Virus record (IMG/VR): IMGVR_UViG_3300005882_000010
DNA length: 34,315 nucleotides
Direction: 5' to 3' (one strand)
DNA from: a virus
Part shown: positions 1-34,315 of the stretch, in pieces
How the letters are laid out: each line of letters opens with the position of its first letter
Position numbering within the stretch: the stretch's first letter is position 1
The notes under the pieces: model-generated
What the model was told of the DNA's origin: nothing
The model's input: the letters and a program-made list of their open reading frames with translations, nothing else
Database searches by the model: none
Position numbers and translations under genes: made by a program

Positions 1-99
1 ACCCAAAAAGCCAGAACCTAAGCCAAAGAAAAAGCGCAAATGATAGAGATTGTATCGCCATACATAGACACGGTTGCCGTTTTTATTGCAATGGCGATG
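1..99. repeat. Terminal direct repeat, copy 1 (identical to 34217..34315). Assembly overlap of a circular or circularly permuted genome.
   Basis: Bases 1-99 (acccaaaaagccagaacc...attgcaatggcgatg) recur exactly at 34217-34315. The NinG-like ORF end and the start of the next ORF lie inside the repeat. Confidence 0.95.
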
Positions 100-2711: not shown

Positions 2712-3032
2712 ATGTCACAACCAAAAACCATTAAAATTGATAACATTGAGTATGTTCGTTCAGACTCAGTATCTGTAGCGCCAACGAAAAAACAAATCGT
2801 TGTATTGCAGCGCGGCTGGGTAGTTGTTGGAGATGTTGAGAAAACGCCGGAAGAAGTAAAGATCTCAAATTGCTCAGTAATTAGAATTTGGGGTACGTCG
2901 AATGGCTTAGGCGAGATTGCTGAAAGCGGGCCAACTTCAAAAACCAAGCTCGATAAATGTCCGGATGTTATTGTGCATCCCCTTTCTGTAGTCTTATACA
3001 TGAACGTAAACGAGGAAAAATGGAATGGTTGA
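2712..3032 (+). CDS. Hypothetical protein, first gene of a two-gene accessory cassette
   Basis: 106-aa ORF with the purine-rich stretch agaggg upstream. Its stop (3030-3032) overlaps the start of the repeat-protein gene (ATG 3025). Confidence 0.75.
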   Translation: MSQPKTIKIDNIEYVRSDSVSVAPTKKQIVVLQRGWVVVGDVEKTPEEVKISNCSVIRIWGTSNGLGEIAESGPTSKTKLDKCPDVIVHPLSVVLYMNVNEEKWNG

Positions 3033-3336
3033 TATAGAGGGATTTGCGGTTAAAATAAACGGCGACGCCGACGGCTACGGCGACGGATACGGCTACGGCG
3101 ACGGCTCAGGCGGCGGATACGGCTCAGGCTACGGCGACGCCGACGGCTACGGCTACGGCGGCGGCTACGGCGACGGATACGGCTACGGCGACGGCTCAGG
3201 CGGCGGATACGGCTCAGGCTACGGCGACGCCGACGGCTACGGCTACGGCGACGGCTCAGGCTACGGCTCAGGCTACGGCTACGCCGACGACGGCTGGCAA
3301 CTGGTCGGATTTCTTAAACCTCAAAAATCATTATAA
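3025..3336 (+). CDS. Gly/Tyr/Asp low-complexity tandem-repeat protein
   Basis: 103-aa ORF. About 75 residues are G-Y-G / G-D-G / G-S-G repeats with 17 Tyr. Short non-repetitive ends: MVDIEGFAVKING... and ...DDGWQLVGFLKPQKSL. Translationally overlapped with the upstream gene. Confidence 0.7.
   Translation: MVDIEGFAVKINGDADGYGDGYGYGDGSGGGYGSGYGDADGYGYGGGYGDGYGYGDGSGGGYGSGYGDADGYGYGDGSGYGSGYGYADDGWQLVGFLKPQKSL
3061..3290 (+). repeat. GC-rich in-frame tandem repeat. A perfect 89-nt duplication (3072-3160 = 3162-3250, period 90 nt) lies on a short-period ggctac/ggcgac background.
   Basis: Direct comparison of the sequence lines. The two copies are separated by a single base, g3161. Codon choice is almost only GGC/TAC/GAC/TCA/GCC. 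GC content is far above the flanks. Confidence 0.9.
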
Positions 3337-3337
3337 T
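3298..3337 (+). promoter_or_regulatory. Motif copy S5 (CAACTGGTCGGATTTCTT, core 3300-3309) plus consensus -10 TATAAT (3332-3337). Candidate promoter for 3373..3666.
   Basis: The motif lies inside the 3' end of the repeat-protein ORF. TATAAT starts 22 nt after the core, and ATG 3373 follows 63 nt after the core. Confidence 0.5.
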
Positions 3338-3372
3338 AAGTCACATAGGGTTAACGAACGGGGTAACGAACA

Positions 3373-3666
3373 ATGGCTAAATGTAAAACTGTATGGTCTG
3401 GCTCAGATAGCTACGGTCGTAGCGTAGAAGTTGCGGAATCTGTAAATGGTAGTTTTTTCTTTAGAGTTTCCGAACGTACCCGCTATGGCTTGCAGTGGTC
3501 TAAGTGGCAGTCACACGAGCCAACTTTTGAAACTCACGGTGTTAATCAAAGCGACAACTGTCCGGAGCATGAGCGCGTTTTCGAGTACAGCGAACCCCAA
3601 ATGTTTTGTGGCTTCAATAAGATGGAAAAGCACGACAAAGCGCCTAACTACAGACTGCCCTATTAA
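3373..3666 (+). CDS. Hypothetical protein
   Basis: 97-aa ORF, the only long frame here. Preceded by gggtaacgaacaATG. No recognisable family. Confidence 0.65.
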   Translation: MAKCKTVWSGSDSYGRSVEVAESVNGSFFFRVSERTRYGLQWSKWQSHEPTFETHGVNQSDNCPEHERVFEYSEPQMFCGFNKMEKHDKAPNYRLPY

Positions 3667-3673
3667 AGGTTTA

Positions 3674-3822
3674 CCGCCCCAGCCTAACCAAGATTGTGTG
3701 AACATCGCTAGTGCATGCTGTGGAAGGTGGTCAAAGGCGATGCGGCTGGGGTGGTGATTAAGCTAGTTAGTCACCAATTTCGTGTCATGCCAGTCTACCC
3801 CTACTGGTGGTGCAAAAAGGGG
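3674..3822 (+). ncRNA. Candidate structured RNA segment: nested long-range helices, a 9-bp hairpin and a possible H-type pseudoknot
   Basis: An 11-bp helix 3674-3684/3744-3754 (one G-U) encloses a 6-bp helix 3703-3708/3737-3742. Hairpin GGTGATTAA-gctag-TTAGTCACC at 3753-3775. CCAGT/ACTGG (3790-3794/3803-3807), whose loop CCCCT (3798-3802) can pair with AGGGG (3818-3822). No credible ORF. Pairings found by eye only. Confidence 0.35.
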
Positions 3823-3892
3823 CACTTAATTTAAGCTCATCTGACACGTTTAGAGTGAGTTTCGGAATCGTTAAACGGTTCCAGTGGTTTAT

Positions 3893-4004
3893 GCGAGAGA
3901 GTTAGTCAAATCTGAGGTATTGATTTACCAATGGCTAATGGGTGAAAGGTGGAGTCTACCATGCCTGACCATCTTTGCAGGTTCGATTCCTGCCTCTCGC
4001 TCCA
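3893..4004 (+). ncRNA. tRNA-like element: perfect 7-bp acceptor stem, canonical T-arm, discriminator T and encoded CCA, around a non-canonical 77-nt core
   Basis: GCGAGAG (3893-3899) pairs perfectly with CTCTCGC (3994-4000). T-arm is GCAGG-TTCGATT-CCTGC (3977-3993), then T-CCA (4001-4004). The total of 112 nt is too long for a tRNA. I found no 5-bp stem with a 7-nt loop that could be an anticodon arm. Confidence 0.5.
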
Positions 4005-4195
4005 AATATAGGCAATATACCATGAATAGAGATGAGAACCATCGTCGAGCCAGAAGAATAGTAAGTAGCTGGCCCAAATGGAAAAGGGAGGTTTCTTTAA
4101 CCAAACACTCTCTACGTTTAAATTGTGCAGCGAAAACTGGAGATAAAGCATTAACATGATGCGAGTCTGCGAAGGCGAGTAGCTGCATTACCTTT

Positions 4196-4224
4196 TTTTC
4201 ATCTTATAGCCTTTCTGGTATAAT
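4196..4224 (+). promoter_or_regulatory. Sigma70-type promoter candidate with extended -10 (TTTTCA - 17 nt - TGgTATAAT)
   Basis: TGGTATAAT at 4216-4224 matches TGnTATAAT. The -35-like TTTTCA is at 4196-4201. It precedes ATG 4248, which has the SD-like sequence gagagg. Confidence 0.5.
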
Positions 4225-4247
4225 ATCCTCACTATTCAGAGAGGTTT

Positions 4248-4433
4248 ATGTTCATGAGTAAGTCACTATATAAGCATATCAGCAAAGAAGATAAAAAGCG
4301 CCATTTCTCAAACGAGCTATGGGGCGGCAAGGGCGATTGCAGATTTAGAGGCAGACGCTCAAACGATGAAGTATCCGAAGAGCTGGATAACTACCGCAAG
4401 AACTACGATTTAATTGATTGGTCTAAAAAGTAA
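4248..4433 (+). CDS. Hypothetical small basic protein
   Basis: 61-aa ORF, SD-like gagagg 5 nt upstream, downstream of the extended -10 promoter candidate. Confidence 0.6.
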   Translation: MFMSKSLYKHISKEDKKRHFSNELWGGKGDCRFRGRRSNDEVSEELDNYRKNYDLIDWSKK

Positions 4434-4466: not shown

Positions 4467-4643
4467 ATGAAAGAAGATTTGATAAGTAAAATCATATCAT
4501 GCGACAAGTGTGAAAAGACCACATCATCGATAAATATGTGCGTTGTGCATGCTATAGAATGGACATGCATGACACTAGTAAAAAATAACTATGGTTTTGA
4601 TGAGTTTTGTGTGGACAATATGGAGATTGATACCAATGGCTAA
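4467..4643 (+). CDS. Hypothetical Cys-rich small protein (58 aa, below the ORF-track cutoff)
   Basis: My own translation: MKEDLISKIISCDKCEKTTSSINMCVVHAIEWTCMTLVKNNYGFDEFCVDNMEIDTNG*. SD aggag lies 8 nt upstream. The stop overlaps ATG 4636 of the next gene (ATGGCTAA). Confidence 0.5.
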   Translation: MKEDLISKIISCDKCEKTTSSINMCVVHAIEWTCMTLVKNNYGFDEFCVDNMEIDTNG

Positions 4644-4968
4644 GACACGCGCACAGCAAAACAGAACTATACGACAAGAGGCTCTCAGGGAGCAATTATC
4701 TCAGCAAAAGCACATCGAGAAAGTTGTTGATAATATTGTGGAAATGGAAAAGCTGGATTTCTTCAAAAAGGGGGATAATGGCAAAATTGACTATAAAGTG
4801 GCGCAATCCACTAAATTTAGGTTAGATGCACTAAGAGCAGCTAACGAGCAGCGCCTTAAACTGATTAATAAATACTTGCCTGACCTTAAGAACACTGAGA
4901 TAACAGGTGAAGGTGGCGGTTCAATTACTATTAAAGTAACGGAGTACGGATCATCAGACGATGATTGA
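4636..4968 (+). CDS. Putative terminase small subunit
   Basis: 110-aa helical, charged protein (MAKTRAQQNRTIRQEALREQL...NKYLPDLK) immediately upstream of TerL and overlapping it. The internal ATG 4636 is chosen because it is coupled to the upstream ORF stop. Confidence 0.55.
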   Translation: MAKTRAQQNRTIRQEALREQLSQQKHIEKVVDNIVEMEKLDFFKKGDNGKIDYKVAQSTKFRLDALRAANEQRLKLINKYLPDLKNTEITGEGGGSITIKVTEYGSSDDD

Positions 4969-28868: not shown

Positions 28869-29085
28869 TCTCCTTTGGTGGCTCAGGCAATGGCATCCAG
28901 TGAGTAACGTGATTTAATTTTTCGTCCAGATGACTCATTCTCCACCAATATGCGCCCGACTTGATTTTTACAAAACACGCCATTAATATTTCACCGTTAT
29001 CGATCACCAAGACATCATTGCTTCTATAGGCTCCAGCCTTGCCCACTTCTGGCAATCTGTCATCAACACTTATCCACTTACTCAT
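28855..29085 (-). CDS. DUF551-like protein
   Basis: MSKWISVDDRLPE...VLV...THWMPLPEPPKE matches the DUF551 pattern. Confidence 0.7.
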   Translation of the reverse strand: MSKWISVDDRLPEVGKAGAYRSNDVLVIDNGEILMACFVKIKSGAYWWRMSHLDEKLNHVTHWMPLPEPPKENERE

Positions 29086-29372
29086 AACTCACCTCTTTCA
29101 TATCGCTTTAACCTTTCCGATTCTTTCCCTGCAATCTCAATCTTTCTTTTGAGCAATTGTCTGTTTGCGTTGCCTATTATGCTATCCGTCATATCCAGAC
29201 CTCTAAAAGTCTCGGTTTTCGCGGATTCTTCAGCTATTATTTCATTTCGTTGCCAGTCTCGATGCTCAATAACTTCATCAAAACACCCCACGCAAGACAC
29301 AGCCCCTCTGTACTCGTAAGCGTCCATAGCATCGACTTTTTTACCGCATTTACTGCATTGATATTCACTCAT
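29082..29372 (-). CDS. Cys4 zinc-ribbon protein
   Basis: 96 aa, CSKC ... CVGC. Confidence 0.65.
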   Translation of the reverse strand: MSEYQCSKCGKKVDAMDAYEYRGAVSCVGCFDEVIEHRDWQRNEIIAEESAKTETFRGLDMTDSIIGNANRQLLKRKIEIAGKESERLKRYERGEL

Positions 29373-29388
29373 ACCCTCACCTCACCTT

Positions 29389-29601
29389 TTAAATACGATT
29401 AAAAGAAATCACTTCCATATTCTCATTAGTGCCATATCTTTCCAGATACTCAGCTTTTGCCGCATTAATACACTCTCTAAATGCTTTAGCTGGTGCAGGG
29501 AAAAAAGATCGGTATGTTACTACGTAATGCCCCCAAGCGAGACTACCATTTCCGTCATTGTGATACAGTTTAACGCGCATAAAATAGGTTCTTTTAATCA
29601 C
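29389..29601 (-). CDS. Hypothetical protein (GTG start)
   Basis: 70-aa ORF, purine-rich ggtgaggtgagaga upstream. Confidence 0.55.
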   Translation of the reverse strand: MIKRTYFMRVKLYHNDGNGSLAWGHYVVTYRSFFPAPAKAFRECINAAKAEYLERYGTNENMEVISFNRI

Positions 29602-29610
29602 TCTCTCACC

Positions 29611-29694
29611 TCACCAAACAACCATTGCGACAATCGGACACAACGCAAACAAGCATCGGTCAAACCACTTTTCTTGCCAGATAATTTCGTTCAT
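29611..29694 (-). CDS. Possible 27-aa hydrophobic peptide
   Basis: My own translation: MNEIIWQEKWFDRCLFALCPIVAMVVW*. Its ATG shares a base with the upstream TGA (TGATG). It fills the only gap in this stretch. Confidence 0.3.
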   Translation of the reverse strand: MNEIIWQEKWFDRCLFALCPIVAMVVW

Positions 29695-29882
29695 CAATCT
29701 ACCCTCATAATTTTACGCATAATCACAGCCGACCATCGTTCGATTGACTCTCTGATTAAAGCTCTGTCTTTCGGACTCCTGGCGGCTCGTTTAACCTCAT
29801 CATCTATCAAGCATGAGCCGTGAAGATGTGGATTTAACTTAGTCTCGAATATGTCGATATTAACTTGTGCTGGAGTTTTCAT
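29694..29882 (-). CDS. Hypothetical protein
   Basis: 62-aa ORF, co-oriented and tightly packed. Confidence 0.55.
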   Translation of the reverse strand: MKTPAQVNIDIFETKLNPHLHGSCLIDDEVKRAARSPKDRALIRESIERWSAVIMRKIMRVD

Positions 29883-30248: not shown

Positions 30249-30276
30249 TTGATGATTGGTCTGTATTGTGTATAAT
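30249..30276 (+). promoter_or_regulatory. Rightward sigma70-type promoter candidate (TTGATG - 16 nt - TATAAT)
   Basis: Consensus -10 TATAAT at 30271-30276 and -35-like TTGATG at 30249-30254. About 100 nt upstream of the O-like gene. Confidence 0.55.
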
Positions 30277-30316
30277 TGTGATGCTGGTGTGGAGTCCTTA
30301 CCACTTAAAGTGCTTC

Positions 30317-30379
30317 CCTCCTGTGCCGCCAGCGACCGAAATTACAGGAGGCGGTCAACACATGCAGGAGATGCTATGA
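30317..30379 (+). promoter_or_regulatory. Leader hairpin sequestering an SD, plus a 5-codon mini-ORF that ends overlapping the O-like gene start
   Basis: CCTCCTGT (30317-30324) pairs perfectly with ACAGGAGG (30344-30351). ATG 30362 gives MQEML*, with its TGA at 30377-30379 overlapping ATG 30376. Confidence 0.4.
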
Positions 30380-31002
30380 GCATGAATCTAATGGTCAAAG
30401 CCATGACCTTAAAAATAGGCTCCCCAATAAGAAAGCTAGTCCTTATCAAATTAGCTGATAATGCTAACGACAAGGGTGAATGCTGGCCTTCTTATCAACA
30501 TATCGCAGATCAATGTGAACTATCTAAATCAGCCGTCAGAAAGCACATCAAGCAGCTAGAGAAAGACGGATTCTTAGCAATTGAGAACCGGAAAGGAGAA
30601 AAAGGGAACAGCTCTAACCTATATCACCTCAGACTACACCCTATAGCACGAGGTGACACACCTATGCCACCTCAGACTACACCCCTATGCCACGAGGTGA
30701 CACCAGAACCAGTCACTATAGAACCAGTCAATGAACCTAAAGAGAGGGCGAAAGCTAAACGCTTTGCGCCACCCTCCCTAAATGAGGTATCAAGCTATTG
30801 CAGAGAAAGGGGAAACTCAATAGACCCTGAGCAATTCATAGACTTCTATTCGGCCAAAAACTGGATGATTGGCAAAAACAAAATGAAGGACTGGAAAGCC
30901 GCCGTTAGGACATGGGAAAAGAGAGAAAATAAATCCAAGGGAGTTCCGATTGATACATCGTGTCGTGAATGGTGGAAAGGTATAGAAGACGAGGTATTCT
31001 GA
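30376..31002 (+). CDS. Replication initiator, lambda O-like/DnaD-like (N-terminal winged HTH, conserved phage C-terminal domain)
   Basis: KLVLIKLADNANDKGECWPSYQHIADQCELSKSAVRKHIKQLEKDGFL is an HTH. C-terminal region: PSLNEVSSYCRERGNSIDPEQFIDFYSAKNWMIGKNKMKDWKAAVRTWEKRE. ATG 30376 follows SD aggag. The track start at 30256 would lie in the promoter region. Confidence 0.8.
   Translation: MSMNLMVKAMTLKIGSPIRKLVLIKLADNANDKGECWPSYQHIADQCELSKSAVRKHIKQLEKDGFLAIENRKGEKGNSSNLYHLRLHPIARGDTPMPPQTTPLCHEVTPEPVTIEPVNEPKERAKAKRFAPPSLNEVSSYCRERGNSIDPEQFIDFYSAKNWMIGKNKMKDWKAAVRTWEKRENKSKGVPIDTSCREWWKGIEDEVF
30625..30730. repeat. Iteron-like direct repeats inside the O-like gene (candidate origin of replication)
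   Basis: CACCTCAGACTACACCCTATAGCACGAGGTGACAC (30625) and CACCTCAGACTACACCCCTATGCCACGAGGTGACAC (30668), period 43 bp, each bounded by inverted CACCTC/GAGGTG. CCTATGCCAC occurs twice (30661, 30684). GAACCAGTCA occurs twice (30706, 30721). Confidence 0.6.
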
Positions 31003-33611: not shown

Positions 33612-34259
33612 ATGCCGCACAAGAAAAGAAAATGCGTAAACTGCAAAGAATTTAAGCCAGTTGAAGAGGGCAATATAACCCCGTCTGGCTTTATCTGCTC
33701 TGGTGAATGTGCGATTGAATACTCAAGAAAGCAGTTTATCAGAAGAAACTACCTGGGAAACAAGGGCAAGCGCAAAACAAACAATAATCAGGCCGCTAGT
33801 GATTTAAGGGTAAGTAAAAGGGCGGCTATTGCAGCTTGCCATAAATATATTAGAGAGCGCGATAGAGGTGGGCTTTGTATATGCTGCGGAGAGCCATTGA
33901 AAGAAGAGTTTCATGCTGGCCATTTTTGGAACTCAGGAAACTATCCTTACATTAGATTTGATGAAGATAATATTCATGGGCAAAATATTCAGTGTAATTA
34001 TTTTAAAGGCGGCGACTCAGGTTATTATCGTGAAAGGTTGATTGAAAAAATAGGGCTTGAGCGAGTTAAAAGGCTTGATGACAATAGAAGCAAGTCAATA
34101 AAGCGCACATTTGAAGATTATCGAGAGATAGAGCGATACTATAAACAAAAGCTCAAAGATTTGATACAATCAAGGAAGGAAACTAACCGGGGATTTGAAA
34201 TGTCAGGCTCAACCAAACCCAAAAAGCCAGAACCTAAGCCAAAGAAAAAGCGCAAATGA
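33612..34259 (+). CDS. ninG: NinG/Rap-like recombination endonuclease
   Basis: CHKYIRERDRGGLCICCGEPL...HAGHF...IRFDEDNIHGQNIQCNYFKGG...YRERLIEKIGLERV...YYKQKLKDL parallels lambda NinG FIRERDRDLPCISCG...DAGHY...LRFNERNIHKQCVVCN...YRVELISRIG...EYQQKLKDL (from memory). Confidence 0.85.
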   Translation: MPHKKRKCVNCKEFKPVEEGNITPSGFICSGECAIEYSRKQFIRRNYLGNKGKRKTNNNQAASDLRVSKRAAIAACHKYIRERDRGGLCICCGEPLKEEFHAGHFWNSGNYPYIRFDEDNIHGQNIQCNYFKGGDSGYYRERLIEKIGLERVKRLDDNRSKSIKRTFEDYREIERYYKQKLKDLIQSRKETNRGFEMSGSTKPKKPEPKPKKKRK

Positions 34260-34315
34260 TAGAGATTGTATCGCCATACATAGACACGGTTGCCGTTTTT
34301 ATTGCAATGGCGATG
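34217..34315. repeat. Terminal direct repeat, copy 2 (identical to 1..99)
   Basis: Exact 99-nt identity with the window start. Confidence 0.95.

Follow-up and report, generated by a model that had tools for sequence, protein, structure and literature searches.

In a virus genome recorded in IMG/VR as IMGVR_UViG_3300005882_000010 (34,315 bases, the whole of which is called the window below), an array of stable hairpins at 3667-3892 is directly followed by a 112-nucleotide (nt) tRNA-like element at 3893-4004 on the + strand, a phage tRNA-derived element that tRNA detectors miss. To judge from its sequence, the element is a derivative of tRNA-Gly, with the top half intact and the bottom half degenerate. 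The explanation that we favour, tentatively and at somewhat less than even chances, is that a lineage-specific cassette of three genes ends, at 3667-4195, in an untranslated 3' tail; cleavage of this tail by RNase P would take place at the tRNA-like element, and the mRNA upstream of the cut would owe its protection to the hairpins. The stacked helices and the tRNA-like element would then form a processing and stability module and not one folded, ribozyme-like RNA of 330 nt, with the pseudoknot that an earlier note had proposed here being incidental.

The acceptor/T-arm stack of a canonical tRNA is complete in the element. The acceptor stem (GCGAGAG 3893-3899 / CUCUCGC 3994-4000) is Watson-Crick paired at 7/7 positions, the T arm (GCAGG-UUCGAUU-CCUGC, 3977-3993) is canonical, with a 5/5 stem and a 7-nt T loop (U54 U55 C56 R57 A58), and these are followed by the discriminator U73 at 4001 and an encoded CCA at 4002-4004. 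A U stands at position -1 (3892) and an A/U-rich trailer follows the CCA. A T loop with a correctly spaced CCA is expected only 0.01 times per genome, and the 7-bp acceptor stem is not yet counted in that figure. The tRNA-like 3' domain that the earlier note had placed after its helices is therefore confirmed, at 3893-4004. Its acceptor elements are moreover of the glycine type: G1-C72, C2-G71 and U73 are present, and so are G3-C70 and C50-G64. Bacterial tRNA-Gly is identified by G1-C72, C2-G71, U73, C35 and C36, archaeal and Thermus GlyRS use G3-C70 and C50-G64, and the combination of U73 with G71 is reported to be unique to tRNA-Gly (PMC9976931). In a MAFFT alignment, 3934-4004 aligns to tRNA-Gly gene bodies, including E. 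coli glyT (the glyT sequence was verified against RefSeq), and the heptamer CUACCAU (3956-3962) occupies the place of CUUCCAA in tRNA-Gly(UCC), with a closing stem that is not sound.

The interior of the element is another matter, as the 4-bp D stem with its G18 G19 loop and the 5-bp anticodon stem with its 7-nt loop that mark a canonical tRNA are degenerate here. From the acceptor 5' strand to the T arm the element measures 77 nt, compared with about 42 in a tRNA, with about 31 extra nt following tRNA position 7, and the folding of this interior does not stand out from that of shuffled sequence (z-scores of -1.44 for arm I and +0.16 for arm II). It is because of this long interior, folding no better than shuffles, that neither ARAGORN nor Rfam calls a tRNA. 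ARAGORN at default settings finds 0 tRNA or tmRNA genes in the window. Rfam 15 (4227 models, including GOLLD, ROOL, C4, bacterial Y RNA and ribozymes) gives 0 matches over the whole window at gathering thresholds, and at E values up to 10 over 3500-4400 it gives only tRNA-Sec and SOX2OT, both sub-threshold and taken as noise; in the tRNA clan the best match is tRNA-Sec with 17.2 bits against a cutoff of 47 (E = 2). The earlier note could assign the region to no known RNA family, and indeed no Rfam model reaches its curated score. A perfect acceptor stem, T arm, U73 and CCA around a shuffle-like interior is the pattern expected if only the determinants of RNase P and of the CCA end are maintained.

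After an in silico deletion of 3900-3930, ARAGORN reports a tRNA-Gly(acc) at its default settings; in this model the D stem has 3 bp and the anticodon stem is mismatched at 2 of 6 positions. This raises the question of a working, if aberrant, tRNA-Gly with the anticodon ACC in CUACCAU (3956-3962), either decoding for a glycine-rich phage protein or escaping a tRNA-targeting host nuclease. Such a tRNA would have the identity elements in place (G1-C72, C2-G71, and U73, plus G3-C70 and C50-G64, with C35 and C36 in a heptamer that no sound stem closes) and also a potential client, as the open reading frame (ORF) 3025-3336 (+), 560 nt upstream of the element, encodes a G/Y/D repeat protein of 103 residues, 40 of them Gly (39%), with 17% Tyr and 14% Asp. 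We nevertheless consider a working tRNA most improbable: the native sequence yields no tRNA call and at best 17 bits in Rfam against the cutoff of 47, the anticodon stem is mismatched at 2/6 positions and the D stem reaches only 3 bp in the best model, and the glycine-rich gene uses GGC (34 codons) and GGA (6 codons), not GGU. To our knowledge, there is also no bacterial mechanism that would remove a 31-nt insert at position 7/8.

Several further identities were rejected. A transfer-messenger RNA (tmRNA) has G3-U70 where the element has G3-C70; there is no tag frame, and ARAGORN calls none at default or 90% thresholds, the calls that appear only at thresholds of 80% or lower carrying implausible tags such as APFCTTSRGRLA and misplaced tRNA domains. 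The intron-containing tRNA-Arg that relaxed ARAGORN settings propose (199-nt intron) leaves the perfect GCGAGAG strand unused, and its acceptor stem is poor, containing 1 mismatch and 2 G-U pairs. A group I intron in a tRNA was dropped as well, with no Intron_gpI match at E up to 10 in 3500-4400. Lambda-type nut/boxB, HK022 put, phi29 pRNA, Y RNA (YrlA) and retron RNA were set aside by inspection, given the lack of what we take to be their defining features or partner genes and the absence of Rfam and Pfam matches.

Upstream of the element, all of the helices that the earlier note listed for 3667-3892 are present where it had placed them. The outer helix pairs CCGCCCCAGCC (3674-3684) with GGCTGGGGTGG (3744-3754) and can be extended to 3671/3757 with two G-U pairs, forming domain 1 (3671-3757, + strand); inside it lie an internal loop of 18 nt on the 5' side and a nested helix (CATCGC 3703-3708 / GCGATG 3737-3742, or 6-7 bp when taken as 3703-3709/3736-3742) with a 26-nt apical region. 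The 9-bp hairpin GGTGATTAA (3753-3761) / TTAGTCACC (3767-3775) comes next, appearing in the fold as 9-10 bp (GGUGAUUAA/UUAGUCACC) around a loop of 5 nt. Up to 5 nt of this hairpin are shared with the 3' end of the outer helix in its extended form, which means that the two compete or stack; the terminator/promoter consensus scan marks this hairpin as terminator-like, with a weak T tail. Two adjacent stable hairpins that the earlier note did not include, at 3834-3861 and 3864-3882, end 10 nt before the tRNA-like element.

Three of these sub-elements fold better than their dinucleotide-shuffled controls (200 per element), which was the comparison that the earlier note had asked for: 3667-3761, with the outer and nested helices, has z -3.44 (0/200 shuffles equal it), the 9-10 bp hairpin (3750-3778) z -4.75 and the two adjacent hairpins (3828-3892) z -3.47. 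The whole of 3667-4010 scores -2.75 on the + strand and -2.39 on the - strand, and 4005-4150, just past the tRNA-like element, shows no structure (z -0.45). Genome-wide, 3667-3761 is the top 95-nt window of the + strand (0/856 equal it, GC-corrected z -3.55) and is ordinary on the - strand (51/856 windows are equal or better), while the full 226-nt stretch 3667-3892 ranks 2 of 853. The + strand bias arises because of G-U pairs, and it argues for an RNA read from that strand. Pair probabilities computed in a 390-nt context are 0.85-1.0 for the core of the outer helix, 0.92 for the nested helix, 0.68 for the 9-bp hairpin and about 0.9-1.0 for the hairpins 3834-3861 and 3864-3882. Three helical parts, the long-range one, the one nested in it and the 9-bp hairpin, are real, favoured on the + strand and stable above chance; the upstream helices as a whole are real but unclassifiable.

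The pseudoknot fares differently. Two short hairpins lie at 3790-3826 (+), CCAGU/ACUGG (3790-3794/3803-3807) and GUGC/GCAC, with loops of 8 nt each, and the proposed pseudoknot or kissing contact joins the CCCCT of one loop (3798-3802) to the AGGGG of the other (3818-3822). Of 192 hairpins of 5 bp on this strand, 21 likewise have a 5-nt Watson-Crick match to the loop at most 25 nt downstream, which puts the H-type topology at chance level, and the hairpins themselves are not unusually stable (3785-3830, z -0.86, not significant against shuffles; pair probabilities 0.68 for CCAGU/ACUGG and 0.31 for GUGC/GCAC). This bears on the earlier note's suggestion of a structured RNA of about 330 nt, which would be a single molecule of a new class, with coaxially stacked helices, kissing loops or a pseudoknot of H type, and the tRNA-like domain at its 3' end, and so analogous to the pseudoknot domain and tRNA-like structure of plant RNA viruses. 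Consistent with that idea, the structured elements are contiguous over 3671-4004 with unstructured sequence on both sides, the region as a whole has z -2.75 and no known family matches. The minimum-energy and centroid folds disagree, however, on how the 5' part would pair with the tRNA-like domain, and no robust long-range or stable tertiary-type pairing connects the domains; with the pseudoknot at chance level, no homologues and hence no covariation, and simple hairpins that would equally fit roles as terminator, stabiliser or RNase III site, we find a single RNA improbable.

The earlier note had also seen no credible ORF between 3667 and 4247. This holds for 3667-4021, where candidate ORFs score -0.18 to +0.05 bits per codon compared with 0.14-0.82 for the neighbouring genes; in 4022-4159 (+), a possible 45-codon ORF with a basic product (MNRDENHRRARRIVSSWPKWKREVSLTKHSLRLNCAAKTGDKALT) begins 18 nt past the CCA and is borderline at 0.10 bits per codon, with no clear Shine-Dalgarno sequence and no relatives. 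A six-frame pseudo-protein query of the region against a set of 5.8 billion proteins, which would reveal mis-called ORFs over homologous DNA, gave no match.

The surroundings give the region its place in a transcription unit. On the upstream side, two canonical intrinsic terminators (~2500-2527 and ~2600-2626, + strand) follow the lysis genes and mark the border of a lineage-specific, moron-like cassette that comprises ORFs 2712-3666 and the structured region. They lie in a second ORF-free stretch, 250 nt long (2455-2715, +), which follows the spanin genes, has a whole-stretch z of -2.95 and also contains promoter-like sites at 2511-2539 and 2642-2671. The cassette includes three ORFs without relatives on the + strand (2712-3032, 3025-3336 and 3373-3666), the last of which matches nothing but itself among 5.8 billion proteins, an identical ORF being present on a second JGI contig; the glycine-rich ORF 3025-3336 is built of 12- and 18-nt DNA repeats (GYGDGYGYGDGSGGGYGSGYGDADGYGYG, twice), with a local GC of 0.65 compared with about 0.45 elsewhere. 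Between 3200 and 4195 the consensus scan finds no promoter-like site, which makes it probable that one transcript covers the structured region and the ORFs upstream of it. On the downstream side, a weak terminator-like stem, GUGCAGC/GCUGCAU followed by seven U (4125-4197, +; z -1.06), is seen in the fold and left unflagged by the consensus scan; transcription of the unit with the structured region probably stops here. A sigma-70-like promoter, TTTTCA-17-TATAAT with a TG extension (4196-4224, +; 10/12 consensus matches), overlaps the end of the U run and stands before the conserved block o4248-terS-terL. The cassette is positioned between the lysis genes with their two terminators and this packaging-operon promoter.

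Given this arrangement, we hypothesize that host RNase P recognises the acceptor/T-arm stack, the U at -1 and the UCCA, and would cut between 3892 and 3893; that RNase E and exonucleases would trim the A/U-rich trailer back to the CCA; that a stable tRNA-like RNA of about 112 nt would be released; and that the new 3' end of the upstream mRNA would be protected by the hairpins at 3834-3882, 3753-3775 and 3671-3757, those at 3834-3882 being the candidate end structure. This is not without precedent: bacterial RNase P cleaves tRNA-like structures in non-tRNA transcripts, among them polycistronic operon mRNAs and phage regulatory RNAs, and the 3' end of MALAT1 is produced by RNase P cleavage at a tRNA-like element (PMC4919922). 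In E. coli tRNA precursors, RNase E cuts directly after the encoded CCA (PMC2190699).

Searches for relatives indicate that the element is an orphan in the collections covered. BLAST of the region against 50,697 phage records (INPHARED) returns nothing or only T-arm matches to ordinary tRNAs, and BLAST against E. coli genomes and plasmids returns nothing meaningful. The region, the T-loop motif and any tRNA are absent from 80 IMG/VR loci near terL relatives (up to 82% identity). In IMG/VR, exact patterns for the sub-elements give no match and purine/pyrimidine-coded patterns (domain 1, the 9-bp hairpin and the tRNA-like element) give 0 matches; the palindromic helix pattern gives chance matches only. 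A first scan of JGI metagenomes gave 0 matches and did not recover the window itself either, and a second one gave at least 120 stretches, of which those examined are ordinary tRNA-Gly genes, unlike the region past the end of the T arm. Exact look-ups of the window's proteins find none on record. The 21-mer and 24-mer of the T arm and acceptor stem occur only in the tRNA-Ile of an unrelated jumbo phage and in a Nanoarchaeota contig, and of 185,579 GTDB species representatives, only a Nanoarchaeota metagenome-assembled genome (MAG) and no bacterium has the 24-mer GCAGGTTCGATTCCTGCCTCTCGC. Direct or inverted repeats that would flank the region as marks of a mobile element are at chance level only. 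The downstream gene o4248, by comparison, has relatives at 50-67% identity (L078 and L323-L326). Directly upstream of it, L078, L323, L324 and L326 have densely packed ORFs, and L325 offers only about 250 nt of upstream sequence; synteny with these relatives starts at o4248, directly after the promoter at 4196-4224.

The extra segment of the element has an origin of its own to account for. Positions 3919-3938 (+), ATTGA(TT)TACCAATGGCTAA, resemble 4626-4643, and within them the 13-nt exact repeat TACCAATGGCTAA is shared between 3926-3938 and 4631-4643, the Shine-Dalgarno-to-start region of terS. The best local match of 3900-3945 in the genome is this terS start region, with a score of 29, while the best matches of 60 shuffled queries score 23.4 on average and 27 at most. 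In addition, 3883-3908, which spans the 5' end of the element, is 73% alike over 26 nt to the start region of o4248 (4240-4265), and ATGGCTAA occurs in 7 copies genome-wide, compared with 1.35 expected, three of them at gene starts. This terS start copy might be a scar left by recombination, or it might imitate a translation start site. As to terS itself, its ORF is listed as 4591-4968 (+), and the repeated start context, GGAG, 10 nt and ATGGCTAAG at 4636, which begins MAKTRAQQ..., suggests that the true start is 4636.

A scar would fit a different history, in which the phage carried a tRNA-Gly gene that is now in decay at a junction of mosaic recombination and the hairpins are unrelated leftovers (old terminators, RNase sites) with no joint function. 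The region and the three ORFs preceding it are absent from every relative and from all of the collections searched, the synteny break falls exactly at the structured region, the D and anticodon arms are unrecognisable, and the roughly 31 extra nt with their near-copy of the terS start are typical of illegitimate recombination. Neutral decay, however, should strike all stems, and here the acceptor stem (7/7), the T stem (5/5), the T loop, U73 and CCA are all intact; nor does it predict that no 95-nt window of the + strand is more stable than 3667-3761, which has a strong strand bias, or that three separate sub-elements each have a z of -3.4 or lower. We hold decay to be rather unlikely when taken by itself, and nearly as likely as the processing module that we favour.

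That processing module has to be weighed against several facts. The terS-start duplication inside the element resembles a recombination scar and so speaks for debris. Related phages manage without the element, with synteny beginning only at o4248, and as no homologue was found there is no evidence of selection. When a long context is folded, the acceptor stem and T arm form with a probability of only about 0.3. Any single genome of 34 kb necessarily has some best-folding window.

A role at the level of DNA was considered as well, either as an attachment site with the 3' part of a host tRNA gene in it or as a packaging site (cos/pac) or other protein-binding site near the terminase genes. Many phages integrate in tRNA genes and carry the 3' part of the gene. 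The region lies about 600-1300 bp upstream of terS, and the genome ends of related phages, taken from record coordinates, map just upstream of their terminase genes. The window has no integrase-sized ORF, however, and no integrase domain was found in the 20 non-structural ORFs scanned with Pfam; both acceptor strands are present and not the 3' half alone; the 24-nt string of T arm plus acceptor stem is in no bacterium and in only one Nanoarchaeota MAG among the species representatives; and the G-U pairs give strand-specific folds, which point to RNA and not to DNA. A DNA-level element is accordingly very improbable in our estimation.

The genome that carries the region is complete and circularly assembled, about 34.2 kb (about 34,216 bp) in length, as follows from the 99-bp exact terminal direct repeat of the window (1-99 = 34217-34315). 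Pfam scans identify early and recombination genes for a Rad52-like recombinase, Gp157, a helix-turn-helix/DnaD-like initiator, a lambda-P-like protein, SSB and NinG. Upstream of the two terminators there are an endolysin gene and spanin-like genes; judged by this gene content, the marine phage is of the lambdoid type. The protein collection lists the contig as one from a JGI metagenome. Relatives of its large terminase are found in marine and aquatic viral contigs and in Alteromonas, Vibrio and Stenotrophomonas phages. Two divergent genes, 29082-29372 (-) and 29527-29823 (+), could be a repressor/cro-like pair, and the options for its lifestyle are a lytic derivative, a plasmid prophage or integration via a host recombinase. 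By far the best-folding stretch genome-wide is found at 30561-30800 on the minus strand (GC-corrected z -4.2 to -4.6 in windows of 112-226 nt); it sits within the + strand ORF 30256-31002, an HTH_36/DnaD_N initiator-like gene, and probably represents an origin of replication inside the initiator gene, an arrangement known from lambda O.

We think it improbable that a DNA phage uses a glycine-type tRNA-like structure together with stacked protective helices as a functional module that ends an accessory-gene mRNA. Were this so, bacterial viruses would have their own equivalent of MALAT1/mascRNA processing, or of the upstream pseudoknot domain and tRNA-like structure of plant viruses; the 112-nt RNA released would end in CCA, might be charged with glycine and could act as a decoy or effector for host factors that bind tRNA-Gly, and the terS start copy might link the element to translation control of the packaging genes. 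If the element is processed and stable, the phage keeps only the top half of a tRNA (the determinants of RNase P, of the CCA-adding enzyme and possibly of GlyRS) on an mRNA tail, and there is a class of tRNA-derived phage RNAs that escapes tRNA detectors; 3' ends formed by way of tRNA-like elements are familiar from eukaryotes and organelles and little documented in phages. If the element is debris, it is a clear snapshot of the decay of a phage tRNA gene at a mosaic junction. Either way this is an observation from a single genome, without evolutionary support, and its value is that of a candidate for transcript mapping.

Several known systems share part of this architecture. Like the RNase III and 3' stabiliser hairpins of T7 type, domain 1 is a two-helix stack of more than 20 bp with an internal loop, situated between cistrons; its internal loop is very asymmetric (18 nt against 1 nt), unlike theirs, and there is no conserved sequence. 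Stacked helices or pseudoknots before a tRNA mimic that looks aminoacylatable also recall the upstream pseudoknot domain and tRNA-like structure of the type found in tobacco mosaic virus (TMV) and turnip yellow mosaic virus (TYMV), a resemblance only; here, in contrast, the virus is a DNA phage, the element is internal to the transcript and not at the 3' end of a genome, its acceptor helix is an ordinary one and the sole pseudoknot is at chance level. With the tRNA-like domain of tmRNA the element has in common an acceptor stem, a T arm and CCA, and a region between them without normal D or anticodon arms; it differs in having G3-C70 and U73 (G3-U70 and A73 in tmRNA), only 77 nt in between and no tag reading frame. 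Compared with phage- and bacterial-type tRNA-Gly, the 7-bp acceptor with G1-C72, C2-G71 and G3-C70, U73, the encoded CCA, the canonical T arm (G53-C61, UUCGAUU) with C50-G64 and a CUNCCAN heptamer at roughly the anticodon position are all alike, and the 3' 70 nt align; the element is, however, 112 nt long as opposed to 74-76, with about 31 extra nt after position 7, its D and anticodon stems are essentially lost and ARAGORN and Rfam miss it. As in non-tRNA substrates of RNase P, such as operon mRNAs and the precursor of the C4 antisense RNA of P1/P7, a phage transcript would here present an acceptor/T-arm-like stack with a 3' CCA to which RNase P could be directed (PMC4919922), although the region has no match to the Rfam C4 model or another family. 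MALAT1/mascRNA, MEN-beta and the t-elements of plant mitochondria are eukaryotic nuclear or organellar systems, the protection being by triple helix where here it would be by plain hairpins and the cleavage is a predicted one; the order of parts is nonetheless the same in both, a structured, protective 3' region followed by a tRNA-like element with CCA-end features (PMC4919922).

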